DNA of 64,000 nt, taken from Escherichia virus TH55. The stretch's first letter is position 1. The number at the start of each line of letters is the position of its first letter. The position numbers were made by a program, and so were the translations under genes. The notes beneath the pieces were generated by a model, which made no database searches, had not been told where the DNA came from, and was given only the letters and a program-made list of their open reading frames with translations. Where the stretch lies: sequence record MT446421.1. One strand, written 5' to 3'. Positions 9,278 through 57,611 of the stretch are shown piece by piece.

Positions 9278-9577
9278 TTAGAAAGAACCAGAACCTTTAA
9301 TTGTGTTCTGGCGACCTTTATTTTCTAATTCAGAATGGTCGATTTCGTATGCTTGTGCTACACCAAAGGCCTTTTTAACTTTAGCTAAAGAGCCTTTAGA
9401 TGTGACAATATTAAAAGTATTGCCTTTAGTAAAATCAACCAAATCCACTTGTACACCCTGTTTACCGAGGCTTGCTACAATAGCATCAACATATTGTTGG
9501 TCTAAATTGCCCTGGACTCCGATTTGAAATGCTTTGGGAGCTTTGGCTTCAGTAATAAATTCTTGATAAGTTTTCAT
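9278..9577 (-). CDS. internal-protein-like protein with capsid targeting sequence
   Basis: starts MKTYQEFITE, the T4 IP capsid-targeting leader with L/I-x-E cleavage site; adjacent to denV as ipII/ipIII are in T4. Confidence 0.55.
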   Translation of the reverse strand: MKTYQEFITEAKAPKAFQIGVQGNLDQQYVDAIVASLGKQGVQVDLVDFTKGNTFNIVTSKGSLAKVKKAFGVAQAYEIDHSELENKGRQNTIKGSGSF

Positions 9578-9625
9578 TTTATATTCCATTGTTTGGTTAA
9601 TAAAATCATTATACAACCTTTTTAG

Positions 9626-10042
9626 TTAAGCGTACACAGCTTTCCCATAGTATTTGTACCAAGCAGGCTTTTGAGAAATTTTCTCATTCAGTCTAGCTTG
9701 ACTGATTTCAATTGACCAGATTGATGGTTGATAATCATTCTTCCATTCATCAGGAATATCAGTTAAATCTTGGGTAGAAATATCTTTTATGTTAAACCCT
9801 CGCTTTAAACATTCCGCAATAAGTTCTTGATGCCGGTTTTTAAGGAACAAAAGCTTATCATAAAAGAAGGTGACATGACCAGTCCCTAAAAGGAAAGATG
9901 ATGGGATTTTAAAGTCAGAAACCTTTTTACCATTTTGTACATGCTTACGAACAGCACCAAACACGCGAGGAAGCTCACGATATTCAGCCATAAGATGTTG
10001 GTCAGCGAGTTCAGATACCAGGGTTAAGTTAATGCGAGTCAT
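9626..10042 (-). CDS. denV: endonuclease V (pyrimidine dimer DNA glycosylase)
   Basis: 138 aa, [35 protein letters not shown]... near-identical to recalled T4 DenV. Confidence 0.9.
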
Positions 10043-10095
10043 GTTTGTTCTCCGTAGTTGATAGGGTCATTATAACCCTATCATTTGGAGATGTA
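10043..10095 (-). promoter_or_regulatory. early promoter/hairpin cassette (family 1) upstream of denV
   Basis: coding strand tgtaca...atagggt TATAAT gaccctat caactacggag ATG; -10 inside inverted repeat. Confidence 0.45.
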
Positions 10096-10097
10096 CA

Positions 10098-10367
10098 TCA
10101 TTTCTTAGAGTATTGACCCATAAGTTTAGCGATATCACCCAATTTCTGATTAAACAAATAATCCACTTCTTTGCCAGATTTATCTACAATTTGCCACTGA
10201 CCATTTCCTTTGTTGCCAAAGGTCCAATCACCGACTTTAAATGAAGTTCCATTAACTTTTTTAATAGAAGTAAACTCAAAGCCTTCTTTCTTAGCTAAAA
10301 ATGCCATGCGGCTTTCATCTGATTCATTTAATACAGATTCAGCCAAAAATTCTTGATACGTTTTCAT
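10098..10367 (-). CDS. internal-protein-like protein with capsid targeting sequence
   Basis: starts MKTYQEFLAE; 89 aa. Confidence 0.55.
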   Translation of the reverse strand: MKTYQEFLAESVLNESDESRMAFLAKKEGFEFTSIKKVNGTSFKVGDWTFGNKGNGQWQIVDKSGKEVDYLFNQKLGDIAKLMGQYSKK

Positions 10368-10375
10368 ATTTTACC

Positions 10376-10867
10376 TTATTTGTATGCGTCAAAAGTTCCG
10401 GTGCGGAAAGTTTCAATAACTCGTTTAGCCCGGTTCGGAGTCTGGACTTTATACCATCTTGAGTCTGCCAGTTCCTTGGCAGCCGCTTCCCATGATTTAG
10501 CCTTCAGCAATCGCATACCCTTAGGAAAACCCGCAACACCAGCAACACCCATCTGGAATACCATATTAATGAGTGCACAACGACGAACTTCATCAAGTAC
10601 ATCATAAACAGGTTTTAAGACAGGATGTCTCAAGATTCCGGCTTTAGCCTTTTCGACCGAACGGTTAAACAGTGTTTCGGCTTCGTGTTGGGTTATACGA
10701 CCATTACAGACGCGACCCATGAGCTTATCGAGCTCGGCGCGAGCAACATCTTTAGATGGGTTCTTAGTTATCAGTTGCCCGATGCCAATGGTCCAATAGC
10801 CTTCAGTATCTTTATACAAATCCAACTTACAACCTTCATCTATGCGTAACATTTCGAATATATTCAT
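10376..10867 (-). CDS. e: endolysin (T4 lysozyme)
   Basis: [12 protein letters not shown]...[13 protein letters not shown]...[12 protein letters not shown]...[22 protein letters not shown] matches T4 lysozyme. Confidence 0.92.
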
Positions 10868-10893
10868 AATACCCCCTTATATAGGGGTATTTA

Positions 10894-11352
10894 TTATCCG
10901 AAAATTTGAGTCATTACCTTGTACATCGATTTGCCCATCACATACTGCCATTGACTCGGTTTAATCAGAGCAAATGCATCGAACTCTGGAACCGAACTAC
11001 CATCCGGGAAGGTATGATAGGCAGAGCATTTACTATGTCTAAACTGCTCATGCTCAACCGGAACCGTGTACAAAAACAGGTGAAGATTTTTGTTATCTGA
11101 ATAACGGAACTCACCCAGGTCCTTTAAGAATGCCGGGTCGTATTGGGTAAACCCGGTTTCTTCTTCGGTTTCACGGATAGCCGCTTCAATCGGGGATTCA
11201 CCAGCTTCAACATGGCCCTTAGGGATGTCCCATTTATGTGCAGGCATACCTGGTTTACGAGAACAAGTCACACGACCCATGAATAACTCTTTATCTTCAG
11301 TCATGAAAATAATGCCAGCAGATAATTCTTTCACCTTGTTTTTCTTACTCAT
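10894..11352 (-). CDS. nudE: Nudix hydrolase
   Basis: Nudix box GHVEAGESPIEAAIRETEEETG; position after e as in T4; start at MSKKNK. Confidence 0.8.
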   Translation of the reverse strand: MSKKNKVKELSAGIIFMTEDKELFMGRVTCSRKPGMPAHKWDIPKGHVEAGESPIEAAIRETEEETGFTQYDPAFLKDLGEFRYSDNKNLHLFLYTVPVEHEQFRHSKCSAYHTFPDGSSVPEFDAFALIKPSQWQYVMGKSMYKVMTQIFG

Positions 11353-11581
11353 CGTCACGTTTCCATGATTGGTTAAAAATATCACTCATTAAAAATTCAA
11401 GTCTATTTTCCAATGAAGGGCTTTCACTACTAGAAACTTGAACCATGTAGTCGGAAATAGGTCGGAACATATCCAAGTCAGTTTCTAAATCATCTTTGAT
11501 TTTCTCTTCTGATGTACCTGTATCATAGGAATACAGATAAGAATCACATGACTCTGATTTAATATAAATTGCAATACTCAT
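11345..11581 (-). CDS. hypothetical acidic protein
   Basis: 78-aa ORF. Confidence 0.4.
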   Translation of the reverse strand: MSIAIYIKSESCDSYLYSYDTGTSEEKIKDDLETDLDMFRPISDYMVQVSSSESPSLENRLEFLMSDIFNQSWKRDDE

Positions 11582-12165
11582 TTACGGCATTCCTCAATAA
11601 AGGAGTTCAATGTATTTTTCTTAGTGATATCGTCATATACCTTTTTAACTTTAGAAATACGAAAAGGTACTTCAATAACCATAGTCCATAAAAATGATGC
11701 AATAAGTCCAGCAAGAGCAGTAGAAAAGCACGCACCCATTACAGCTACGGGTGCTTCATTTTTGCCTGTCAAGAAAAACCACAGGAATGGTAAAAATAAG
11801 ATTCCAGCCCAGGCATAAAACCTGGAACAAATTAACTTATCAAATTCATCACTCCAGGTACGAAATCCATATTTCTTGCTATAAGAAATTAATGGGTCGG
11901 GTGTCTGTTCTTTGAGTGGTTCTGGTTGATACCCATTAATGATATATCCCATTTTATATTCCTTAATTAAAAGCTCTTTCACATGACGATTGCATCGCGA
12001 CCAATCAACATTTTCCACCTTGATTCCTTCATCACCATCATCAAGGTTCGCCCAATATTTTTTGGTAATCATAAATTCATCTCTTGATACAATTATACCT
12101 GCATTTTCCGACCGACGGATGAAGTTTACATCAACACCCATACAACCCGGCTCATAAAGGGCCAT
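11578..12165 (-). CDS. hypothetical membrane protein with C-terminal FIEECRK tail
   Basis: 195 aa; soluble N-domain, two hydrophobic helices, basic tail ending NSFIEECRK. Confidence 0.45.
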   Translation of the reverse strand: MALYEPGCMGVDVNFIRRSENAGIIVSRDEFMITKKYWANLDDGDEGIKVENVDWSRCNRHVKELLIKEYKMGYIINGYQPEPLKEQTPDPLISYSKKYGFRTWSDEFDKLICSRFYAWAGILFLPFLWFFLTGKNEAPVAVMGACFSTALAGLIASFLWTMVIEVPFRISKVKKVYDDITKKNTLNSFIEECRK

Positions 12166-12851
12166 TACCAGCCCTCCATAGGGAATTCCAGATATACTTG
12201 AGCATTAACGCGGATTTCATTTGTAATCTTTTTAACACGGTCGGTATTACGAGACACACGACCAAACCAGCGCCAACCGTTACTTACTGCGCGAGAACCT
12301 GTATGCCATGTCTGCCAATCAAACTGGAGCAACGTGCGGTCAGGAGCATCCCACTTGGCTAATTCATTGGACTCAATTTTTTCCAGAACTTCTTTATGCC
12401 ACTGACGATAGATAAGTTCGCCTTCAGGAATCTGACTAAATTGTGCAGTTCCGGTTGCAAAATAAGTAGGACACACATCAGCGTTAACAAGACCAAGAAT
12501 ATGTTCAGAATGGTAACGAGGATTATCATAATCAGGTTGCCCTGCAGTAATAAAGTGTTGACCAACCGGAATATCCGGGCGTGGTACATCGTCATGGTGA
12601 TAACCTGGGATAGCAGGATACCAACCAGGCATCAGCATATGAACCCGAGAATCAAATACAACCTGGTCGGTGTTCCAATCATCCGGCAGACTCATAATAA
12701 AGCTACGAGTAATAGGACCGCCATTGTCAAAAGCGAAAGCCAATGAGCTGTTGAAGAACATAGTTTCGTTTTTGATTTTATCATTAGAAATTTTACCAGC
12801 GAAACTGCCTACTGCATGAGCTTGAGAATTAAAAGTTTTTGGACCGTTCAT
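12165..12851 (-). CDS. hypothetical protein
   Basis: 228-aa ORF preceded by promoter/hairpin cassette. Confidence 0.45.
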   Translation of the reverse strand: MNGPKTFNSQAHAVGSFAGKISNDKIKNETMFFNSSLAFAFDNGGPITRSFIMSLPDDWNTDQVVFDSRVHMLMPGWYPAIPGYHHDDVPRPDIPVGQHFITAGQPDYDNPRYHSEHILGLVNADVCPTYFATGTAQFSQIPEGELIYRQWHKEVLEKIESNELAKWDAPDRTLLQFDWQTWHTGSRAVSNGWRWFGRVSRNTDRVKKITNEIRVNAQVYLEFPMEGW

Positions 12852-12905
12852 AATATTTTCCTCATTGATTGTGGGACCATTGTGTCATAGTCCCACTTGG
12901 ATGTA
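12852..12905 (-). promoter_or_regulatory. early promoter/hairpin cassette (family 1)
   Basis: inverted repeat gtgggac/gtcccac then caatcaatgaggaaa before ATG; GTGTAC upstream. Confidence 0.4.
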
Positions 12906-12910
12906 CACAC

Positions 12911-13891
12911 TTATTTTTCGAAAGGACGAATTAAATGTTGGTTAGCCTTGAAACGTTTAACATAGTCTTCGTGACCCAGGGTGTTGTACATATTAACCAC
13001 TTCCTGGTAATGTTCCCAGGCATACTCGCGGAACCATCCAGAAGTAATGGAGGTGCAGACTTTTTCCAGCGCAATATGGAAGCTCACGGATGGAGAGATA
13101 TTGAACTCATTGGGAACCTGCGAACGCTCCAGAGCGAGTACACATGCTTCTTCATAAACCCCTGCCAGTTTAATAATCTCAGGGAGTGCTTCAAATTTTT
13201 CACGCGAGGTCATAACTTCTGAATCATCTTTCATATAGAACTTATATGCAGGCTTATCAGCAAGCGCCACGGCCTCGTGGATGGAGTCATGGTCAAGGGT
13301 ATAGATTGTATCATTAAAGAAAGTTTTCTTGCCCACGTCTAGTTTAGGGTGACTATATGACAATGTTTCTGCCTGGCGCTGCAGCATGATTTTATGCAGT
13401 TCGTCATTAAGAACAACCCCCTTATTGCGAAGGTAATTAATATGACTCATGGTCTTCAGGAAGAATGGATTGTTCTTCAGGTAACGATGAGACAATTTAA
13501 TTGCCAGACAAATATCAGGAGTCGCCCAGTAAAAACCAGATAGACGGTCTTTCTGAATATTTGCCTTCGCATATTTGAGTAAACGATAACTGGAGGTAAA
13601 ATCTTCCTCTTGTAGCTCATCAGTCAGCTCACGAACACTTGTCAATGCGCGGACGATGTACGCTTCAAAATAGGTTTCTTTACCATTGTGCATACATTTA
13701 AAAGCTTGAACATCTGGGTTATCCACATGCACATGTTGTCCCATCATCTGGGTTTTAAAGCTATTCCAGGAGCCCTGGTCAGCGATAAAGTCCCAATCAG
13801 AGTTTTCAATTTTCTGACTTTCAATCAGACCAGCGTTATGTAATGCACGAGAACCAATAACTAACATCATAATATTTTCCTCAAATAACAC
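12911..13891 (-). CDS. hypothetical protein (326 aa)
   Basis: long ORF; N-terminal VIGSRAL...SDWDF loosely NTase-like, unconfirmed. Confidence 0.45.
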   Translation of the reverse strand: MLFEENIMMLVIGSRALHNAGLIESQKIENSDWDFIADQGSWNSFKTQMMGQHVHVDNPDVQAFKCMHNGKETYFEAYIVRALTSVRELTDELQEEDFTSSYRLLKYAKANIQKDRLSGFYWATPDICLAIKLSHRYLKNNPFFLKTMSHINYLRNKGVVLNDELHKIMLQRQAETLSYSHPKLDVGKKTFFNDTIYTLDHDSIHEAVALADKPAYKFYMKDDSEVMTSREKFEALPEIIKLAGVYEEACVLALERSQVPNEFNISPSVSFHIALEKVCTSITSGWFREYAWEHYQEVVNMYNTLGHEDYVKRFKANQHLIRPFEK

Positions 13892-14122
13892 TTAAATTTC
13901 AGCAGCAGAGATATTAGATTCATCTATCATCTCAGAGGCGGACCCCTTAACGATAGGAACCAATTTGCCATAGAGGTCTTCATTATAAGGGTCGTTGATA
14001 CAGTGTGCATCTTCAAAACGAACACCGTAATCAGACTTCTTATAAACGAGACCGTAAATCTTTGTAAACTTAGCACGACTAATTTTTACAGGCTCATCAG
14101 TCATTGGGGCGTAATACCACAT
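13892..14122 (-). CDS. hypothetical protein
   Basis: 76-aa ORF behind promoter/hairpin cassette. Confidence 0.4.
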   Translation of the reverse strand: MWYYAPMTDEPVKISRAKFTKIYGLVYKKSDYGVRFEDAHCINDPYNEDLYGKLVPIVKGSASEMIDESNISAAEI

Positions 14123-14180
14123 AATGTTTTCCTCATTAGTTGACGAAATAATGATACTACATTTCTTTAGGCTTGTACAC
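14123..14180 (-). promoter_or_regulatory. early promoter/hairpin cassette (family 1)
   Basis: coding strand GTGTAC...gaaat gtag TATCAT t atttc gtcaactaatgaggaaa ATG. Confidence 0.45.
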
Positions 14181-14225
14181 TAAATTTCTGCACATAAGTC
14201 CTCCTATCACATCCTTGTGATTAAA

Positions 14226-14453
14226 TTATTTTCCTAACGAAATACGAGTAGGTTTTTTACCGAAATATTCTTCATAGGAACCATCTAAACGACCTGCTTT
14301 AGACCGACAGTATGAATCATACTTTTTGTAATAAGTCAACTCTGTATTGTAACGTGGATGTCTATCAGCCATAATAATACTTAACGGCCAGCCTTTAGCA
14401 TAATCGATAAGACCATTTATTTTACGAATATATCTTTTCTTTAATTTTAGCAT
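14226..14453 (-). CDS. hypothetical basic protein
   Basis: 75-aa ORF. Confidence 0.35.
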   Translation of the reverse strand: MLKLKKRYIRKINGLIDYAKGWPLSIIMADRHPRYNTELTYYKKYDSYCRSKAGRLDGSYEEYFGKKPTRISLGK

Positions 14454-14680
14454 GAGCTTGGGTACCAGATTTTACCATCGGCACGAGCAACGAAGGTGCG
14501 ACCAGCTTCTTCACCATAACAAGAGCTGTTCAACCAGTCTTCAAGACGGACTTCGCCGTCATAATCATCAAGCTCGACACCGAAATCTTGAGCAGAAGCC
14601 ATATCTTTTACTTTCTTATACAGCGCGGCCAGTTCAAGGGCAGCTTTTTCTAATTCAGCATGTTCAACAGCAGTAGTCAT
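14447..14680 (-). CDS. small protein, paralog family with C-terminal W-x-SS-C tail (member 1)
   Basis: 77 aa; N-terminal helix, ends WYPSSC; internal WLNSSC. Confidence 0.45.
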   Translation of the reverse strand: MTTAVEHAELEKAALELAALYKKVKDMASAQDFGVELDDYDGEVRLEDWLNSSCYGEEAGRTFVARADGKIWYPSSC

Positions 14681-14689
14681 TTTATCACC

Positions 14690-14920
14690 TTAGCAAGTCA
14701 TAGAGGAGTTAAACCAGAAACCCTGGCCATCATTGATGCCGTAATCACTGCGAATCCAGTCATATTCTTCATATTCTTCGCTAGAAGCCGGAATATAACG
14801 TTGGAAACGGTCTGCGGCGTGTAAATTAAAAATTTCACCGGTTTTATCGGCTAACTGCTCACCTTCACAGATTAGTGCACGGATTTGGTCTTCAATTTCT
14901 TTAACAGTTTTAGTAGTCAT
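14690..14920 (-). CDS. small protein, paralog family (member 2)
   Basis: 76 aa; ends FWFNSSMTC. Confidence 0.5.
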   Translation of the reverse strand: MTTKTVKEIEDQIRALICEGEQLADKTGEIFNLHAADRFQRYIPASSEEYEEYDWIRSDYGINDGQGFWFNSSMTC

Positions 14921-14929
14921 TTTATAACC

Positions 14930-15127
14930 TTAGCATTCATAAGAGGAGGACACCCAAGAGGTACCGCTAATAGTAATACAACCATTATAAAGCGTAATAT
15001 GTTGTTCCAGATTACGCTGACCGTCAATATAGATATCAGCTTCTTCGCGTTCTTCTTTGCAAATCTGGATAACGTTTTCAATAGCTGCCGCGGCAGTACG
15101 GATTGCACAATCTAATTCACGAGACAT
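14930..15127 (-). CDS. small protein, paralog family (member 3)
   Basis: about 65 aa from MSRELD; ends SWVSSSYEC. Confidence 0.5.
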   Translation of the reverse strand: MSRELDCAIRTAAAAIENVIQICKEEREEADIYIDGQRNLEQHITLYNGCITISGTSWVSSSYEC

Positions 15128-15135
15128 ATAATTCC

Positions 15136-15417
15136 TTAACATTCAGAAGAGGAGGACACCCAACCGCCATTTTCTAGGTCGGTTGTGTAGTCATGAGTAT
15201 TAACAATAGCCCATTCAGGATGACCATCTTCTTCCCAATGAGCAAGGTCAGCTTTCAAGGCGCCAGGAGAATAATAGTCACCGCCCATACCGCGAGCAGG
15301 GTATATATTAAAATGAGTCTCATATTTGTCTGCAATTTCCTCAGCACGGCGAATGGCTTCATGGATTTCTTTTACTGCGGCCAGAAGCTCTGGTTGGTTA
15401 TGGTTATCATTCATCAT
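15136..15417 (-). CDS. small protein, paralog family (member 4)
   Basis: 93 aa from MMNDNH; ends GGWVSSSSEC; longer ORF-track start is a spurious extension through member 5. Confidence 0.5.
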   Translation of the reverse strand: MMNDNHNQPELLAAVKEIHEAIRRAEEIADKYETHFNIYPARGMGGDYYSPGALKADLAHWEEDGHPEWAIVNTHDYTTDLENGGWVSSSSEC

Positions 15418-15418
15418 A

Positions 15419-15709
15419 TTAGCACATCTCAGAAGAGGAAACCCAGGCACCAACAGTAACAACGCCGTTTTCAACTCGCCCGCCGTTGTTTTCAATATGG
15501 TGAGCGAACCATTCGGAACATTCATAACCAACTGGATGATATGTACGGCCGGTGCCGTAATCACCAGTGCTGAATTCGATACCATATTCATCTGCGATTT
15601 CTTCACAGTGTTTTTCAATTTCAGAGGTCTTATTTAGAAGAGAATAGATGGCTTTTTCTGCAGATTTCTCATCATAATACTTGGGGATAGCAATTTCAAT
15701 TTTATTCAT
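15419..15709 (-). CDS. small protein, paralog family (member 5)
   Basis: 96 aa; ends GAWVSSSEMC. Confidence 0.5.
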   Translation of the reverse strand: MNKIEIAIPKYYDEKSAEKAIYSLLNKTSEIEKHCEEIADEYGIEFSTGDYGTGRTYHPVGYECSEWFAHHIENNGGRVENGVVTVGAWVSSSEMC

Positions 15710-16152
15710 GATTTACATTCCTTAATAAAGGTTTCAAGGTCATTACGTTTTGTTTTGTCTAGGAACTTATTATACTCAGCCATTGCCAAAGCGTATCTCT
15801 TTCGGCTGGGAGCATTCACGGCATTTGTGTGACAGATATCATACACAACCGGGATAAAATAAGCCACAACAGCCGGAGCAATTATCATAAAGAAGCCCAT
15901 CTCAATAGGCATGACTCCCTCGATTGCAGCCATAACCGTGGTCATTACCAGACCAACCAAACCACCAAGCATGGCAGTGACAATCCCCAATAATAAATTG
16001 CCGCCAATATCATATTCAGCCAATTGATAAACATGTGATGCAAGACTAGGCCGTTCCATTACGAACCTCCTTAATAAATTCTTCGGCACATTTAATTTTG
16101 TGCTCTTCTTGTAGGGAAACACATTTTTGTTCCCACTCTTTAACTCGTCCAC
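15706..16152 (-). CDS. hypothetical membrane protein with C-terminal FIKECKS tail
   Basis: 148 aa; two hydrophobic helices; start may be internal Met near 16059. Confidence 0.45.
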   Translation of the reverse strand: MDELKSGNKNVFPYKKSTKLNVPKNLLRRFVMERPSLASHVYQLAEYDIGGNLLLGIVTAMLGGLVGLVMTTVMAAIEGVMPIEMGFFMIIAPAVVAYFIPVVYDICHTNAVNAPSRKRYALAMAEYNKFLDKTKRNDLETFIKECKS

Positions 16153-16441
16153 GGTATCCTTTATTCATATGATTTTGATGCCACACATTTATCAAAATCA
16201 TACTCAGGACTGTAATAAAAGGAGCTGCGATTATTAGCGCCCAGGCAACTCCAACACTAATGATACTCATATCCCCACAAAGCACCATCATTATAACCCC
16301 AACGATGCATATGGACAGGGCCCCAAATGCTGGCATAAGGTCTTTATCAATTTTGTCTGCGTATACAAATTTTTCTGGTTTACTTGGCAGATATAACGTT
16401 CGCATTTTGAACCCCTTTAGCATATTCACGACATTCAGCAA
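16046..16441 (-). CDS. hypothetical membrane protein
   Basis: 131 aa; two hydrophobic helices; tail EEFIKEVRNG; overlaps both neighbours in other frames, start uncertain. Confidence 0.4.
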   Translation of the reverse strand: MLNVVNMLKGFKMRTLYLPSKPEKFVYADKIDKDLMPAFGALSICIVGVIMMVLCGDMSIISVGVAWALIIAAPFITVLSMILINVWHQNHMNKGYRGRVKEWEQKCVSLQEEHKIKCAEEFIKEVRNGTA

Positions 16442-16952
16442 TAAAACGATTAAGCTTACGTTTCCGTTTACGACCCTCTAATGTATACTCAGCCGCCAAA
16501 TCAAGAAGCTCATCTTTATCATAATTTTTAATATCAGTATAAGTTGGGCGGCGGTCAACCATTCCAAAGTGGTCACCATTTTCCAACATCAAATAACACA
16601 CCAAATGGTCATCATCGTCCGCATTAATAAGCTGCTTATAATCACTTGGTTCATTTAACGCATACACAGAATAACTCAGCCCAGCGAATTCCACTCGTTG
16701 AATACCCAGATTTACGTCAATAATTTCCAAGGCATCTGCAAAAGAAAGGTCTTCAGCTAAAGCAAAAATAAAAGGCAATTTGGTAGTATCGCCGCGACTT
16801 GTTGTTCTTCTTAAGAAATCATTGGAATAGCCCAAGTCGCGGCGGATTCTATAAAGAACTGTGTTAGTTTCAGTGGCAAGACCACTACCGCCAAACCATT
16901 CCACATTTGATAAAAGATTATCATATAAAGTCATAATTTTCTCCTCTCCCAA
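16380..16952 (-). CDS. hypothetical protein with KRKRK...FIAECRE tail
   Basis: 190 aa soluble ORF; C-terminus overlaps next gene. Confidence 0.45.
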   Translation of the reverse strand: MGEEKIMTLYDNLLSNVEWFGGSGLATETNTVLYRIRRDLGYSNDFLRRTTSRGDTTKLPFIFALAEDLSFADALEIIDVNLGIQRVEFAGLSYSVYALNEPSDYKQLINADDDDHLVCYLMLENGDHFGMVDRRPTYTDIKNYDKDELLDLAAEYTLEGRKRKRKLNRFIAECREYAKGVQNANVISAK

Positions 16953-16976
16953 TTAGGGGGCTTTGCCCCCTTTATC

Positions 16977-17570
16977 TTACTTAAGTGAATTGATGTATTC
17001 TTCAATGTCAGCGGACGTGGTATCCACACCAACCTGTGGACCTTTGAAGGTTTCAACACGCATCAAGGTGTCTTCAATATCAATCTTAGTCAATGCAGCG
17101 ATTTCAACAACATCATCTGCAGTCGCAATACCCAGGGCAGATACCTTACGGGTTTCGCGGATGTATTCCAGTTTAACAGCTAGTTCCTGACGAGAATCAT
17201 CCAGCTCTTTAACTTTCAATTTAATTTCATTACGCATTTCAACATAATCGTCTGCCTTCTTACGAAGTTGTTTAGCAGTGCGACGATACAGGAGACCCAG
17301 TTTAGCATGGACCTGGACATCAGCACCATCAGCAATCAGTTTGCGGATTTCACGCTCTTTTGAGGCGGCGAGTTGGTCTTTTTCATTCGCTAACTCGCGG
17401 ATGCGTTTTTCTTCATTAACAGACTTAACGTGGGCGGTCTGGAGCTCAGTAATCTTGTCAATCAGGGTAGACGCCGCTTGAGTATATTGGTCTTCAATAG
17501 ACAGGTTTTTTGCCATTGCAGTACCCAGTTTGGAGCGGATGAATTCAACAAGTTTCTTTAAAGTATTCAT
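16977..17570 (-). CDS. coiled-coil protein (possibly PspA/IM30-like)
   Basis: 197 aa, long charged heptad-like helical segments. Confidence 0.4.
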
Positions 17571-17642
17571 GGTATTTCCTTCAGTTGGTTAATGTTTTAT
17601 TATCCAGGGAACATACTATCATGTTCCCATTAAAGCACTAAT

Positions 17643-17948
17643 TTAGATTTTGTTTTCCTGCACACCATAGTAAAGTTCATCAGACACAATATCCAGGATG
17701 CGGCGAACATATTCATCATGGTATTGGCAGTCAAAATCAAATGCAACAGTAGTTTCCGCTTCACGAGTGAATTTAACTTGCACATTCAGGTGATTAACAA
17801 CGTTAGTTAATTTATCAGTAAAGAACTCTTTTGCTACCGCCTGTTGGACTTGTACTTTGAACTTGGTGTTGCGAATCATATTTTCAGCAGATGCGAAATT
17901 ACCAGTTTTATCAAAGTCAACAAGCGCCAGGTTGATGATGAATTTCAT
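17643..17948 (-). CDS. hypothetical protein
   Basis: 101-aa ORF behind family-2 promoter cassette. Confidence 0.45.
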   Translation of the reverse strand: MKFIINLALVDFDKTGNFASAENMIRNTKFKVQVQQAVAKEFFTDKLTNVVNHLNVQVKFTREAETTVAFDFDCQYHDEYVRRILDIVSDELYYGVQENKI

Positions 17949-18010
17949 TTTATTCTCCAGTGTTTTATTTGGTAACTCAGTATGGAATCATTATGCCTTA
18001 AAGCAGGGGG
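17949..18010 (-). promoter_or_regulatory. early promoter/5' leader cassette (family 2)
   Basis: coding strand CATAAT gattccatactgagttaccaaataaaacactggag ATG. Confidence 0.45.
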
Positions 18011-18034
18011 CTTGTATACCCCCCCCTTTTTGAA

Positions 18035-18478
18035 TTAAATTTCAAATTCTTTGCGGAAGTTGGAAGCATAAGACTGAACTGATGCTTTGTTGAACCCAAA
18101 CTCACGCACAATCATATCAATAACAGCTCTGCGAGCAGCACCATTAGACATATTAACAGTTTTGAACATATCATAGCATAAATCTTTGTTGCTCATACCG
18201 GAGCGTTTAGGTGCCTTACGTTCAGCTTTTGGTTCAGCTTTAGGAGTAGGTTTAACTTCTGGTTTAACCTGTCCATCATTCAGACCTTTAAAAATTTTAC
18301 CTGCCAGAGTTGCCAGTTTAGCAGCTTCGCCACGAGTGATACCAAATACTGCCGGGTTAAATGAAATACCTTCAGCTGTCAGACGTTTGAAGAACATACG
18401 GGCTGCGGATTGTGCTTCAGCTTCAGAAGAGTTGTTTAATGCCAGTTTAACGTACTTAACCAGTTTTGAAGTTTTCAT
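18035..18478 (-). CDS. hypothetical protein (paralog of 18562..18987)
   Basis: 147 aa from MKTSKL; C-terminal NGAARRAVIDMIV...VQSYASNFRK shared with neighbour. Confidence 0.45.
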   Translation of the reverse strand: MKTSKLVKYVKLALNNSSEAEAQSAARMFFKRLTAEGISFNPAVFGITRGEAAKLATLAGKIFKGLNDGQVKPEVKPTPKAEPKAERKAPKRSGMSNKDLCYDMFKTVNMSNGAARRAVIDMIVREFGFNKASVQSYASNFRKEFEI

Positions 18479-18540
18479 TTTATTATCCCGTTTGTTTATT
18501 TGGTAACTCAGTATGGGATAATTATACATTATCCCACCTG
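18479..18540 (-). promoter_or_regulatory. early promoter/hairpin cassette (family 2)
   Basis: coding strand GTTTTAC...gggata atg TATAAT tatccc atactgagttaccaaataaa...ATG. Confidence 0.5.
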
Positions 18541-18561
18541 GAAGTAAAACACTTTTCTCAA

Positions 18562-18987
18562 TTATTTTTGAGCTTTGCGGAAGTTGGAAGCATATGACTG
18601 AACAACAGTCTTTTTGATATCATGGGTGTTAACCAGAACATCAATCAGAGCGCGACGAGCTGCACCATCTGCCATATCAATTTCTGCAAATGCCTGGAAG
18701 CAAATGTCACGAGCATTACCAGATTTTGACTGGATTTTTTCTTCTTTAACTTCTTCAATTGGGAATTCAATCATTTCAGCTTGGATTAATTCAATGATAG
18801 ATTCTTTTGACTGTTTGGTGTTTACCTTCAGTTCAGAATTAAGGGACTTGGCGATGGCAACAATCTGGGTTGAAGTCAGATGAATAAGTGCATCTTCACG
18901 AATGCAGATTTCACATACTTCATCGGCAACCATTTTGTTGGTGATGCGGGTAACAGAGAATGCAGAGGTCAGGGTCAGGAAGTTCAT
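18562..18987 (-). CDS. hypothetical protein (paralog of 18035..18478)
   Basis: 141 aa from MNFLTL; C-terminal DGAARRALIDVLV...VQSYASNFRK. Confidence 0.45.
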   Translation of the reverse strand: MNFLTLTSAFSVTRITNKMVADEVCEICIREDALIHLTSTQIVAIAKSLNSELKVNTKQSKESIIELIQAEMIEFPIEEVKEEKIQSKSGNARDICFQAFAEIDMADGAARRALIDVLVNTHDIKKTVVQSYASNFRKAQK

Positions 18988-19060
18988 TTTATTTCTCCAA
19001 AGTTTTGTTTGATTCAGTGTGTAACTCAGTATGGAATCATTATGCATCCAGTCAATTCGG
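18988..19060 (-). promoter_or_regulatory. early promoter/leader cassette (family 2)
   Basis: coding strand GTGTAC...CATAAT gattccatactgagttacacactg...ggag ATG. Confidence 0.45.
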
Positions 19061-19108
19061 ATGTACACTACTTTTTGAAGAAAATTTCAAATTTATTCGG
19101 GGTATAAA

Positions 19109-19127
19109 AAAGCCCGCAATGCGGGCT
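19109..19127 (-). terminator. rho-independent terminator
   Basis: agcccgc aat gcgggct hairpin next to A-run (T-run on minus strand), right after stop of 19129..19683. Confidence 0.5.
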
Positions 19128-19128
19128 G

Positions 19129-19683
19129 TTAGTTCTTATAAAAGCGGAACGGATTTATATGAAAGGCGAGCATAGCCTTAGGGATTGGTCGGGACAGAAG
19201 GCTCTTGAGCTTCCAACCACAATAAACGCGCAGATAAAAGGTGATTCCACCGACCTTGAGATAAGGAACAGAAGCAAAAACACCCCAGGCATTATCCGTC
19301 CACATCCAGAGCCATCCGTGATGAGCTTTATCCGGGGAACCGGATTCAACATCAGGATTGCCTTTATAATGGAATTCTGAATTGCAATCACGACCGAGCT
19401 TGTGGTAAGCAAAATTGTATGCTTTGTTTCGCCAGAGCCAAGCTACTCGTTGGAAGTAAACACCTAACGGCCATTTTCGGATTTTTGACCAACGTTTGAC
19501 ATGACCCCGGTCACCATCAATCGGATTATCATAAGTCATCATCCAATCAAACCCGAACGGAAGTTTACCAGTCTTTTTATTATAGAATGGAACTACAAAT
19601 GGAGCCAGGATAACGGCCAGAATCATGGAGATAAAATCCAGTGGAACTAACAGAATCCAACTCAAATATTTTAACAGTTTCAT
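19129..19683 (-). CDS. hypothetical membrane-anchored protein
   Basis: 184 aa from MKLLKYLSW with N-terminal hydrophobic helix; longer ORF start runs through upstream terminator. Confidence 0.45.
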   Translation of the reverse strand: MKLLKYLSWILLVPLDFISMILAVILAPFVVPFYNKKTGKLPFGFDWMMTYDNPIDGDRGHVKRWSKIRKWPLGVYFQRVAWLWRNKAYNFAYHKLGRDCNSEFHYKGNPDVESGSPDKAHHGWLWMWTDNAWGVFASVPYLKVGGITFYLRVYCGWKLKSLLSRPIPKAMLAFHINPFRFYKN

Positions 19684-19706
19684 ACGTTTCTCTTTAGTTG
19701 ATTTAT

Positions 19707-19735
19707 AAAAAAGCCCCAACCTTTCGGAAGGGGCT
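19707..19735 (-). terminator. rho-independent terminator
   Basis: agcccc...ggggct stem with tcgg-type loop and adjacent A-run on plus strand. Confidence 0.5.
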
Positions 19736-19772
19736 ATACCTTGTCGGGGTTCCACCTGCAAGGCAAGTGTTC

Positions 19773-20168
19773 TTATCCGCGAGCGAATGCCATTGCAGCG
19801 CGTTCGTTAGCACGGTCGGTGATGTTCAAGAATTTATCACGAGCGATTTCGATTGGAGCACCAACCCAGTCAGCAGCACCATTACCTGGAGACTGTTTAG
19901 GGCGAACCATATAAGTTGAAACTTTGGAACCGGCTAGTTTGGCACCAGGTGCCGCGGCATTTTTAACGTCTTTAGCTTTGATGCCAAACCCAGTTACGAT
20001 ACCCCAAGAAACGCCATTAACTGGTTTCTTGAACATAACACGGTCACCAATTGAAACACCGGCTTTTTCTGGAGCCACTAAAGAAAATTTACCAGCTTCA
20101 GTCAGTACGGATTCGGTGATGGTATTGCGATTTAAAAATTCTGCATATGTAAGCATTTTGTTTTCCAT
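19773..20168 (-). CDS. hypothetical protein, possible internal-protein-like leader
   Basis: 131 aa; N-terminus MLTYAEFLNRNTITE loosely resembles the MKTYQEFIAE leader. Confidence 0.4.
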   Translation of the reverse strand: MENKMLTYAEFLNRNTITESVLTEAGKFSLVAPEKAGVSIGDRVMFKKPVNGVSWGIVTGFGIKAKDVKNAAAPGAKLAGSKVSTYMVRPKQSPGNGAADWVGAPIEIARDKFLNITDRANERAAMAFARG

Positions 20169-20632: not shown

Positions 20633-20648
20633 AATATCCTCGGTAATT

Positions 20649-20724
20649 GGTCGGGGTGGTGGGATTCTAACCCACAACCTACGGTTTAGAAGACCGTTGC
20701 TCTATACAATTGAGCTACACCCCG
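20649..20724 (-). tRNA. tRNA-Arg (anticodon TCT)
   Basis: hand-folded cloverleaf: acceptor CGGGGTG/CACCCCG, D-arm GCTC/GAGC, anticodon arm ACGGT-CTTCTAA-ACCGT, T-arm GTGGG-TTAGAAT-CCCAC, encoded CCA. Confidence 0.8.
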
Positions 20725-20800
20725 GGTGGCCCCATCCGGACTTGAACCGGAAACCTGCCAGTTATGAGCCGGATGCTCTAACCAATTGAGCTACAGGGCC
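20725..20800 (-). tRNA. tRNA-Met/Ile2 (anticodon CAT)
   Basis: acceptor GGCCCTG, D-arm GCTC-AATTGGTTA-GAGC, loop CTCATAA, T-arm TCCGG-TTCAAGT-CCGGA; anticodon stem has one mismatch; abuts tRNA-Arg. Confidence 0.7.
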
Positions 20801-22059: not shown

Positions 22060-22245
22060 TTACTCACCTTTGGAGATTTTATCCATAACGAAAGAGATTG
22101 AACCAATTAAAAATGCAACTACTAAAGAGATTATATTCTCAGAAGTTGAAAGCATATTCAACATAAAGCCAGCAAACATGCTAAAACCAAAAACGGTAAC
22201 AGCAACAAGGGCAGTAACATTTCTAATTAATTCACAACGTTTCAT
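22060..22245 (-). CDS. small hydrophobic membrane protein
   Basis: 61 aa, two hydrophobic helices, behind family-1 cassette. Confidence 0.4.
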   Translation of the reverse strand: MKRCELIRNVTALVAVTVFGFSMFAGFMLNMLSTSENIISLVVAFLIGSISFVMDKISKGE

Positions 22246-22300
22246 TTTATTCTCCTCAGTAGTTGATGGGATAATTATACGCTATCCCATTCAAAAGTAC
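22246..22300 (-). promoter_or_regulatory. early promoter/hairpin cassette (family 1)
   Basis: coding strand gtgtac...gggata gcg TATAAT tatccc atcaactactgaggagaataaa ATG. Confidence 0.5.
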
Positions 22301-22302
22301 AC

Positions 22303-22557
22303 TTATTTTTTAGGGATACGATAGTAACGCATCTCAACATCTTTCTGCTTGTGCCACTTTTTGATAAGGTCTTCAGAACCTTTAATAGTAACGATGTCAT
22401 AGCGACCATCATGCGATACTTCAGCACTTAACTGCATGAAGTTGTCTAGTGAACGGCGCAATTCCTCATTAGAAAAACTACCACGCGGGGAACCAACATA
22501 AGCAAACTCAACTTTTGCATCTGCGGCTTCGTTAATAAATTCTTGATAAGTTTTCAT
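22303..22557 (-). CDS. internal-protein-like protein with capsid targeting sequence
   Basis: starts MKTYQEFINE; 84 aa. Confidence 0.55.
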   Translation of the reverse strand: MKTYQEFINEAADAKVEFAYVGSPRGSFSNEELRRSLDNFMQLSAEVSHDGRYDIVTIKGSEDLIKKWHKQKDVEMRYYRIPKK

Positions 22558-22612
22558 GTTGTCTCCAGTAGTTGATGAGATAATTATACTGCAGTTATCC
22601 CATCGCGTATAC
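22558..22612 (-). promoter_or_regulatory. early promoter/hairpin cassette (family 1)
   Basis: coding strand ...cagTATAATtatctcatcaactactggagacaac ATG. Confidence 0.45.
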
Positions 22613-23145: not shown

Positions 23146-23478
23146 TTATTTATAAAGTTTTGCCAGTTCTTTACGTCCGCGTGCAGACATAATAAATTGT
23201 TCATCGCCAATTTTAAAATAAGCCATACCGCCGTCAACAGCGATACCAATTTCTTTAGTACCTTCTTTGCCTTTCCACTTGCCACCAGATTTCAGGACAG
23301 CTTCAACTGCAGCTTTGGAATATTTGGACGTTTGAAAACGTTCATTACCAATCTGAAAGAAAACACCATCTGCATTTTTGGTTAAACCAAATTTCAGAGA
23401 GCCTTCACTATCATCAATTGATTTGGTCTCATTGATGGCGGATTCGGCTAAAAACTCGTTGTAAGTTTTGATGTTCAT
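23146..23478 (-). CDS. internal-protein-like protein with capsid targeting sequence
   Basis: starts MNIKTYNEFLAE; 110 aa; position equivalent to T4 ipI. Confidence 0.5.
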   Translation of the reverse strand: MNIKTYNEFLAESAINETKSIDDSEGSLKFGLTKNADGVFFQIGNERFQTSKYSKAAVEAVLKSGGKWKGKEGTKEIGIAVDGGMAYFKIGDEQFIMSARGRKELAKLYK

Positions 23479-23540
23479 ATTGACTCCGTTTGTTCATTCG
23501 TTGGTGTAGGAACATAATACTGCACCTACACTTATTTGTA
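23479..23540 (-). promoter_or_regulatory. early promoter/hairpin cassette (family 1)
   Basis: coding strand GTGTAC...gtgtagg tgcag TATTAT gtt cctacac caacgaatg...ggag...ATG. Confidence 0.45.
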
Positions 23541-23542
23541 CA

Positions 23543-24233
<691 letters not shown>

Positions 24234-57539: not shown

Positions 57540-57611
57540 TTTTAAACTCCAAGGTTTTGTTTGTTAACTCAGTATGGAATCATTATGTCTTATCTTAATC
57601 TGGTTGTAAAC
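57540..57611 (-). promoter_or_regulatory. early promoter/leader cassette (family 2)
   Basis: coding strand GTTTAC...CATAAT gattccatactgagttaacaaacaaaaccttggag ATG. Confidence 0.5.

Follow-up and report, generated by a model that had tools for sequence, protein, structure and literature searches.

Promoter-early stem-loop-like cassettes in a Gaprivervirus and their possible role as read-through insulators

Promoter-early stem-loop (PeSL) elements were defined in the phages RB49 and phi1, where stem-loops overlapping the -10 are one of the listed subclasses (Arbiol et al. 2010, PMC2839356); translation and ribosomes are not mentioned in that paper. The elements of the T-even internal-protein (ip) loci (Repoila 1994, as cited in PMC2839356) have T4 early promoters and weaker, AT-rich stems and are regarded there as analogues, not homologues, of PeSLs. 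PeSLs were later extended to PST/T4 and nt-1/KVP40, including middle-promoter variants termed PmSLs (Comeau et al. 2014, PMC4122927), in analyses that did not extend to Gaprivervirus. Gating by a promoter within a hairpin is known for late promoters only, namely those of T4 e, soc, 49 and I-TevI (PMC3014915). Here we describe early-promoter cassettes with stem-loops in a stretch of 64,000 nucleotides (nt) from Escherichia virus TH55 (MT446421.1), called the window in the following, which matches Escherichia phage UPEC07 at 100% identity (MW250787.1; Straboviridae, Tevenvirinae, Gaprivervirus; T4-like).

The cassettes, located on the minus strand of the T4-like early region (window positions 1-28200), are real and statistically solid PeSL-like elements, of a type known from T-even phages and newly documented here in a Gaprivervirus. 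A first-pass annotation of the window had described them as early promoters with PeSL-type stem-loops, and their anatomy fits this assignment, with the caveat that they are strictly T-even analogues and not PeSLs of the RB49 type; its observation as a whole was partly confirmed, and its interpretation is supported. We hold it probable, at about 0.6, that each copy is a self-contained early-gene cassette whose hairpin would insulate the module from read-through, where the start site, the RNA structure in vivo and the effect are what we infer. This reading builds on recurrent motifs, on the complementarity and covariation of the stem arms, on their dependence on genomic context and on the position of homology breakpoints, all of which were observed directly.

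Complementarity around the -10 and its genomic context

As a RegB-based locus search gave only 8 loci, the comparative set was collected from denV loci; 33 T4-like contigs around denV together with the window provided 271 cassettes, 236 of them unique and 133 non-redundant. These cassettes were picked by hexamers, Shine-Dalgarno (SD) sequence and ATG only, and stems played no part in the selection. A helix of at least six Watson-Crick pairs around the -10 is present in 44 of the 133 (33%) compared with 9.45 (7%) for permuted partners (z = 14.6). Covariation, which was taken from alignments anchored on invariant motifs, amounts to 0.243 in the commonest register of the -10-anchored ungapped alignment versus 0.186 +/- 0.012 after shuffling; none of 500 shuffles reached 0.243, and all slid registers gave lower values. 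Window stem folds were compared with dinucleotide shuffles, and a stem bracketing the -10 exceeds them at seven sites, designated here by the upstream end of the cassette (22302, 22612, 23543, 12907, 10098, 17640 and 18549; z -2.6 to -3.8). Among 14 window promoters picked by hexamers alone, the complementarity of the spacer to its own post--10 segment is higher than that to swapped segments (p = 1.5e-4). Selection on the stem structure had been proposed in the first-pass annotation, and the complementarity is clearly above chance by these measures. The further statement that the -10 lies in the loop or the 3' arm of a stem holds for six of the nine copies listed there (z <= -2.6) and fails for 14180, 7505 and 3417, with the GAAAT/ATTTC stem given for 14180 being at chance level (-2.3 kcal/mol, z +0.23).

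The stem arms are AT-rich, 7-10 bp long and highly variable, with loops of 6-18 nt, and orthologous genes bear unrelated stems (GGGAACAT, GAGGAC, GATGGAAGC and GTGTAGGAG). The 3' arm begins in or just past the -10 and ends 4-12 nt past it. It thus ends at about the predicted +1. The cassette's own transcript would therefore be devoid of the hairpin, whose formation would be confined to read-through RNA or single-stranded DNA.

Whether a cassette has a -10-spanning stem depends on what lies upstream of it. Such stems were observed in 33 of the 74 cassettes whose upstream co-directional open reading frame (ORF) ends no more than 12 nt away from the -35, compared with 5 of the remaining 59 (p = 2.7e-6). 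Of 19 cassettes preceded by a canonical terminator, one has such a stem. A second class of helices, which pair the promoter region with the SD or the ATG, is nearly exclusive with the first: 36 cassettes have the first only, 30 the second only and 2 both. When the two classes are combined, a helix is found at 57 of the 74 tight junctions versus 1 of the 19 terminator-preceded cassettes (p = 9e-9). In 69 of the 133 cassettes, the end of the closest co-directional stop on the upstream side falls in the range from 10 nt inside the -35 to 9 nt upstream of it. The window conforms to the pattern: among its stemless cassettes, 3417 and 19068 follow terminators, 28268 and 57611 are without a co-directional upstream gene, and 18019 has a G5/C5 hairpin at the -35 and no -10-spanning stem. 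This dependence on context, the most informative of the results, suggests an action on RNA that arrives from upstream, and hence insulation of the module, and argues against promoter mechanics or a role in DNA.

Promoter, leader and individual copies

All nine minus-strand sites named in the first-pass annotation are present, 19-29 nt upstream of SD and ATG, and the module described there, a GT(T/G)TAC -35 with a TATAAT-like -10, was recognized as a T4-type early promoter (GTKTAC, 17-18 nt spacing) at each of them except 17640. The pattern GTGTAC-N17/18-TANNAT has 6 matches versus 0.20 expected from shuffles. The -35 in the window is the T4-type variant and not TTGACA; a generic sigma70 scan based on the TTGACA consensus yielded no more sites than shuffles over positions 1-20000 and is uninformative for T4-type promoters. 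For the 133 non-redundant cassettes, the logo is GTTTAC ... TGn TAtwAT (a/g)n(t)CCTAT(c)AAA, and A/T prevails at positions -4 to -14, counted from the first base of the -35. The sequence consensus of the T4 early promoter, quoted in a GenBank annotation as GTTTAC(N14)gtggTAttaT with an upstream A-rich element, is matched, the window copies being mostly without the TGn. The seventh nt past the -10 is an A in 76% of the 133 cassettes, and this conserved A is the predicted +1. The cassette is found at ~82% identity in T4-type phages; in the GenBank annotation of one of these, the orthologous ipI and trna.4 sites are labelled 'T4 early promoter', with which a predicted terminator overlaps.

The 3' end of the cassette consists of the SD and the start codon, ahead of small ORFs of unknown function in the hyperplastic region, and the leader ends with GGAG followed by A-rich sequence. 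The leader ATCAACTACTGAGGAG has 5 matches with at most 3 mismatches versus 0.42 expected; the conserved leader reported earlier is retained for five of the nine copies and not for the other ones. The 11-nt RegB/S1 target, whose consensus is GGAGAAUAAAA (Durand et al. 2006, PMC1702504), is matched exactly at 22302 and 18019 and partially in the other cassettes, and RNA structure is known to protect from RegB cleavage (PMC1702504, PMC3014915). A second family of cassettes was noticed at 57611, 19068, 18549 and 18019 (minus strand), in which the long conserved leader GATTCCATACTGAGTTACC(A)AATAAA... follows a CATAAT or TATAAT -10, 35-45 nt before the SD. The individual copies are as follows.

22243..22302, minus strand: cassette 22302, upstream of a gene for a 61-amino-acid (aa) membrane protein (trna.4-like); -35 GTGTAC at 22302-22297, -10 TATAAT at 22279-22274 within the loop, predicted +1 A at 22267; stem with 5' arm ATGGGATA (22290-22283) and 3' arm TATCCCAT (22273-22266), -11.1 kcal/mol, z -2.86; GGAG at 22255-22252 within GGAGAATAAAA, RegB/S1 target present, ATG at 22245.
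22555..22612, minus strand: cassette 22612, upstream of an 84-aa internal-protein-like ORF (MKTYQEFINE...); -35 GTATAC at 22612-22607, -10 TATAAT at 22588-22583, predicted +1 A at 22576; stem with 5' arm GATGGGATAA (22604-22595) and 3' arm TTATCTCATC (22583-22574), one G.T pair, -9.9 kcal/mol, z -2.59; GGAG at 22566-22563, ATG at 22557.
23476..23543, minus strand: cassette 23543, after gene 57B; -35 GTGTAC at 23543-23538, -10 TATTAT at 23519-23514; stem GTGTAGG (23531-23525) with CCTACAC (23510-23504), -13.9 kcal/mol, z -3.31; ATG at 23478.
12849..12907, minus strand: cassette 12907, before a 228-aa ORF; -35 GTGTAC at 12907-12902, -10 CACAAT at 12883-12878; stem with 5' arm GTGGGACTAT (12895-12886) and 3' arm ATGGTCCCAC (12879-12870), -17.3 kcal/mol, z -3.54; ATG at 12851.
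10040..10098, minus strand: cassette 10098 of denV; -35 ATGTAC at 10098-10093, -10 TATAAT at 10074-10069; stem with 5' arm GATAGGGT (10082-10075) and 3' arm ACCCTATC (10067-10060), -14.5 kcal/mol, z -3.84; anti-SD TCTCC at 10091-10087, SD GGAGA at 10053-10049, ATG at 10042.
17568..17640, minus strand: cassette 17640, before a 197-aa ORF; stem GGGAACAT (17628-17621) with ATGTTCCC (17614-17607) around TAGTAT (17618-13), -12.2 kcal/mol, z -2.65; ATG at 17570.
14120..14180, minus strand: cassette 14180; -35 GTGTAC, 18 nt, -10 TATCAT; leader GTCAACTAATGAGGAA.
7443..7505, minus strand: cassette 7505 of regB; -35 GTGTAC at 7505-7500, -10 TATGAT at 7481-7476; true ATG at 7448.
3357..3417, minus strand: cassette 3417, before a 67-aa ORF at 3156-3359 (annotated MobD in the record); -35 GTTTAC at 3417-3412, -10 TACTAT at 3393-3388; exact family-1 leader.
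18476..18549, minus strand: cassette 18549, additional to those listed in the first-pass annotation; -35 TTTTAC; stem GTGGGATAA with TTATCCCAT around TATAAT, -14.9 kcal/mol, z -3.67; leader of the second family (...ATACTGAGTTACC...); ATG at 18478.

Comparison with related loci adds to the picture of single copies. In the equivalent of 12907 in locus L331, a C for T in the 5' arm changes a G.U pair to G-C. The copy at 17640 has lost its -35 to a deletion of 4 nt that is evident against close relatives, L331 and L332 having GTTTAC or GTGTAC there, and the remainder, the MotA-box-like TGCTTTA (17637-17631) followed after 12 nt by TAGTAT, has the geometry of a MotA-type middle promoter; judged by these motifs, the copy looks like an early promoter turned to middle-promoter geometry with the hairpin retained. 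For 14180, a helix between the -10 and the ATG is possible, formed by GTAGTATCAT with ATGTGGTATTAC. The regB cassette 7505 has no -10-spanning stem (z +1.7, promoter segment alone); in its predicted helix, AGTTATGATTATC (7484-7472, -10 plus discriminator) pairs with GATAATCATGACT (7455-7443, last SD base through ATG), and the L331 equivalent of this helix scores 28. Cassette 3417 is likewise without a -10-spanning stem and has a -35/spacer stem (z -2.2); TCCTCA at 3410-3405 is complementary to the SD TGAGGA at 3372-3367, and a separate canonical terminator is located upstream at 3456-3429. Cassette 18549 sits at a duplication/insertion junction in L331.

The early region contains 57A/57B, ip genes, trna.3/.4, two tRNAs, e, nudE, denV and ipII/III, and also regB (6990-7448), vs, tk, rI and mobD as well as many small hypothetical ORFs. 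The tRNAs, tRNA-Arg(tct) and tRNA-Met, are encoded on the minus strand at 20648-20800, and an Rfam scan of the window returned these two only. Canonical terminators with a GC-rich stem and a T-run are present at three intergenic sites of the early region (3429-3456, 19111-19127 and 16955-16971). Three tandem small paralogous ORFs with common 3' ends (...tcctcctct.tgaatg.taagg) occupy 14453-15127, separated by gaps of 8-9 nt that are free of promoter cassettes. The GenBank starts of regB (7487) and of two other ORFs (19047 and 18529; MW250787.1) fall within the promoter, and the cassettes favour ATGs at 7448, 18987 and 18478 over these. Some product names of MW250787.1 look wrong, for example that of a 77-aa 'major capsid protein'.

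Read-through insulation and the alternatives

We hypothesize that host sigma70 RNA polymerase reads the T4-type early promoter and would start at the conserved A, 7 nt past the -10, and that the leader of ~20 nt may double as ribosome-binding site and as target motif of the phage RegB nuclease. The hairpin would form solely on RNA arriving from upstream through the promoter, and it could act there on the upstream cistron, be it as its 3'-end structure, as an attenuator or as a processing structure. It would lie inside the promoter because the upstream stop codon directly adjoins the -35, which leaves no space elsewhere. The net effect would be a gene module insulated from upstream transcription. 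Sister cassettes may reach the same end via a helix of the promoter region with the SD or the ATG, in which case read-through RNA would be untranslated and presumably protected from RegB, and locally initiated RNA would be open.

Helices of this second class are enriched among the related cassettes (z = 9.5). In orthologous denV and regB cassettes of other phages, CTCC at 2-3 nt past the -35 pairs with leader and SD, as in CTCCTGTAG/CTACAGGAG, CTCCGTTTG/CAAACGGAG and CCTCCAAG/CTTGGAGG, and the anti-SD:SD helices of the orthologous denV cassettes comprise 8-12 bp. CTCC occurs in spacers at positions 2-3 past the -35 only (47 of the 236 unique cassettes). The pairing continues beyond CTCC/GGAG for 3.94 pairs versus 1.10 +/- 0.26 with permuted partners, and the covariation of the anti-SD helices is 0.338 versus 0.110 after shuffling, a value reached by none of 500 shuffles. 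MAFFT combined with RNAalifold returned no structure for the regB and denV cassettes, their alignment being out of structural register. In other cassettes, including regB of the window, the -10 and discriminator are paired with the SD-ATG segment. For the ribosome site, the predicted openness is 0.30 on read-through RNA and rises to 0.46 when the 5' arm is scrambled, compared with 0.73 on the RNA that the cassette itself initiates. In the window, such a gating helix is predicted at regB, and shorter ones at denV, where the SD has a predicted unpaired probability of 0.00 in read-through RNA, at 3417 and at 19068; 22302, 22612, 23543 and 12907 are without it. Separately, the anti-SD helix might mediate translational coupling and not a simple block, as a ribosome ending at the abutting stop could reach the CTCC (L331-L377).

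Several results weigh against insulation by the hairpin. A literature search for start-site mapping in T4 or Gaprivervirus found none, and the +1 is deduced from the consensus only. Thinning to the 133 cassettes relied on sequence distance alone, and some common ancestry remains among them. Across the window cassettes, ribosome-site accessibility on read-through RNA is 7.30 compared with 7.74 +/- 0.46 for shuffled upstream sequence and thus not significantly sequestered, and translational gating in the window would apply at most to regB, denV, 3417 and 19068. G.U and A.C mismatch counts (44 vs 27) do not differ from those of the permuted control (468 vs 355) and give no strand preference, hence favouring neither RNA nor DNA. 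Furthermore, the -10-spanning stems are not followed by a U-tract (mean 1.7 T in the next 8 nt; at least 5 T in 1 of 38), which makes canonical termination unlikely.

The last point bears directly on the view that the stem-loops are ordinary intrinsic (rho-independent) terminators by which transcription from upstream would be halted shortly ahead of the next promoter, as in the original PeSL description. One PeSL stem-loop of RB49 cut lacZ expression as strongly as rrnB T1 (Arbiol 2010, PMC2839356), prediction software called the orthologous hairpins of phage SA21RB terminators, and the near exclusivity of stems and canonical terminators is as expected for elements doing the same job. Apart from the missing U-tract, however, the short AT-rich stems and their loops argue against termination, a terminator scan picked up none of the cassette stems, and the GC-rich stems with T-run at 3456-3429 and 19127-19111 indicate that the canonical form is used where room exists. 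We therefore consider terminators unlikely. It seems less probable still that the inverted repeats act in DNA, be it as cruciforms or hairpins on which enzymes of recombination or repair would act or as binding sites that direct shuffling, although breakpoints between related genomes cluster in cassettes, the mismatch counts show no strand preference, and a stem-binding recombination protein was speculated upon previously (Arbiol 2010, PMC2839356). The high diversity of the stem sequences does not fit a sequence-specific binder. Arms of 7-10 bp with loops of 6-18 nt would generally be poor cruciform formers. Moreover, the repeats depend on an abutting upstream ORF and alternate with SD-pairing helices that are meaningful only in RNA, and ~60 nt of plain homology suffices for exchange, as T4-type recombination needs <50 bp (cited in PMC2839356).

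Two further explanations concern the pairing itself. The hairpin might keep the downstream ribosome site open on polycistronic RNA by sequestering the pyrimidine-rich, anti-SD-like discriminator (CCTAT, CTCC), in which case read-through RNA would be translated as usual: when the 5' arm of -10-spanning stems was scrambled, the predicted openness of the ribosome site decreased from 0.538 to 0.487 (p = 0.003; 28 of 44 cassettes), and in strong-stem cassettes of the window the ribosome sites are more open than when the sequence upstream is shuffled. The effect is small, however, it leaves the exclusivity with terminators unexplained, and it is opposite to that of the alternative helix class in the same context, so that we rate this possibility as low as an action in DNA. 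Finally, the complementarity could be functionless, either as a by-product of the promoter consensus, in which a purine-rich spacer end faces a pyrimidine-rich discriminator, or due to shared ancestry. The logo of all cassettes indeed has R-R at -8/-7 and C-C at +9/+10 from the first base of the -10, and gggata/tatccc arms are common to several window copies. Yet the partner permutation that gave the z of 14.6 keeps composition, covariation exceeds both shuffled and slid controls, and a dependence on genomic context would not be expected, which renders this explanation very improbable. Insulation from read-through is thus the reading we prefer for the window. Its generalization to a rule for T-even-type phages, by which early promoters abutting an upstream gene would near-obligatorily carry a helix with its 5' arm upstream of their own start, in two nearly exclusive forms and with terminators where there is room, is put forward more tentatively; the tight-junction counts given above suggest such a general insulation code, for which we see slightly less than even odds.

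Gene exchange and comparison with known systems

The cassettes had also been proposed to mark modular units, and homology breakpoints against VR20-, VR25-, VR26-, PSD2001- and SP18-type genomes do fall within them. In the comparison with three VR-type genomes, 8 of 20 breakpoints lie inside cassettes, which make up 4% of the region, compared with 0.82 expected (p = 6.6e-7). At 14180, an intergenic block of 103 nt is 97% conserved, and the flanking genes both differ in L331 and L333. Upstream of denV, homology to L331 and L332 breaks off at 10074, where the -10 begins, and homology to L333 at 10095, within the -35; the L331 breakpoint at the 17640 cassette is located at 17641/17629. In VR26, ip6 replaces the ORF body at 22316-22511 with both cassettes and the MKTYQEF leader kept, and PSD2001 and SP18 have a chimeric cassette with a 22612-like 5' part and a 22302-like 3' part. 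The conserved module of ~60 nt would also serve as the homology patch for swapping neighbouring ORFs between phages. The recombination junctions of ip genes (9544-9579 and 22511-22557) reach ~30-46 nt into the coding sequence, across the MKTYQEFI capsid-targeting leader, from which it follows that the homology patch in ip loci would consist of the cassette plus the leader peptide.

The cassettes delimit the real expression units and the true start codons of the early region and explain the sites of gene swaps between related therapeutic coliphages. For phage engineering, they represent natural insertion points and portable expression modules. If the insulation code is true, the late-promoter-in-hairpin gate would extend to early promoters as well, regB and denV among them, and T-even stem-loops of the PeSL type would not be terminators. 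The cassettes also provide a concrete, testable rule, by which a hairpin is expected wherever a gene upstream directly adjoins the promoter and which bears on the independence of neighbouring modules in dense phage genomes. What we would add to prior knowledge is the suggestion that the hairpins may be read-through insulators and not terminators.

With the PeSLs of RB49 and phi1, the window cassettes share the composite of stop codon, AT-rich stretch, -35, -10, stem-loop, SD and ATG, as well as the location ahead of small ORFs of the hyperplastic region, at indel or replacement junctions between close relatives. In contrast, the RB49 elements match the sigma70 consensus (TTGACA) almost perfectly and their stems are rich in G/C (GGGG...CCCC), one element having been tested as a terminator, whereas the -35 in the window is the T4-type GTTTAC/GTGTAC and the stems are AT-rich, highly variable and without U-tract. 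The similarity to the PeSLs of PST/T4 and nt-1/KVP40 and to the T-even ip-locus elements includes the promoter consensus TTTACW-N17-TAYWAT, weak, variable stems and the linkage to internal-protein genes with the MKTYQEF leader; the 17640 copy resembles a PmSL. According to the 2014 figure legend (PMC4122927), the PST stem-loops sit just upstream of the promoter, whereas the stems of the window and of the T4-type ipI/trna.4 sites bracket the -10. The putative RegB/S1 target is only one sub-element of the cassette. With T4 e, soc, 49 and I-TevI, the cassettes have in common that an internal start is located downstream of the helix's 5' strand, and long transcripts are predicted to be closed and local ones open; this likeness concerns regB and, more weakly, denV, 3417 and 19068 in the window, and ~17-24% of the related cassettes. 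While translation of e, soc, 49 and I-TevI is delayed by means of late promoters, the promoter in the window is early, and the main class of its stems excludes the SD.

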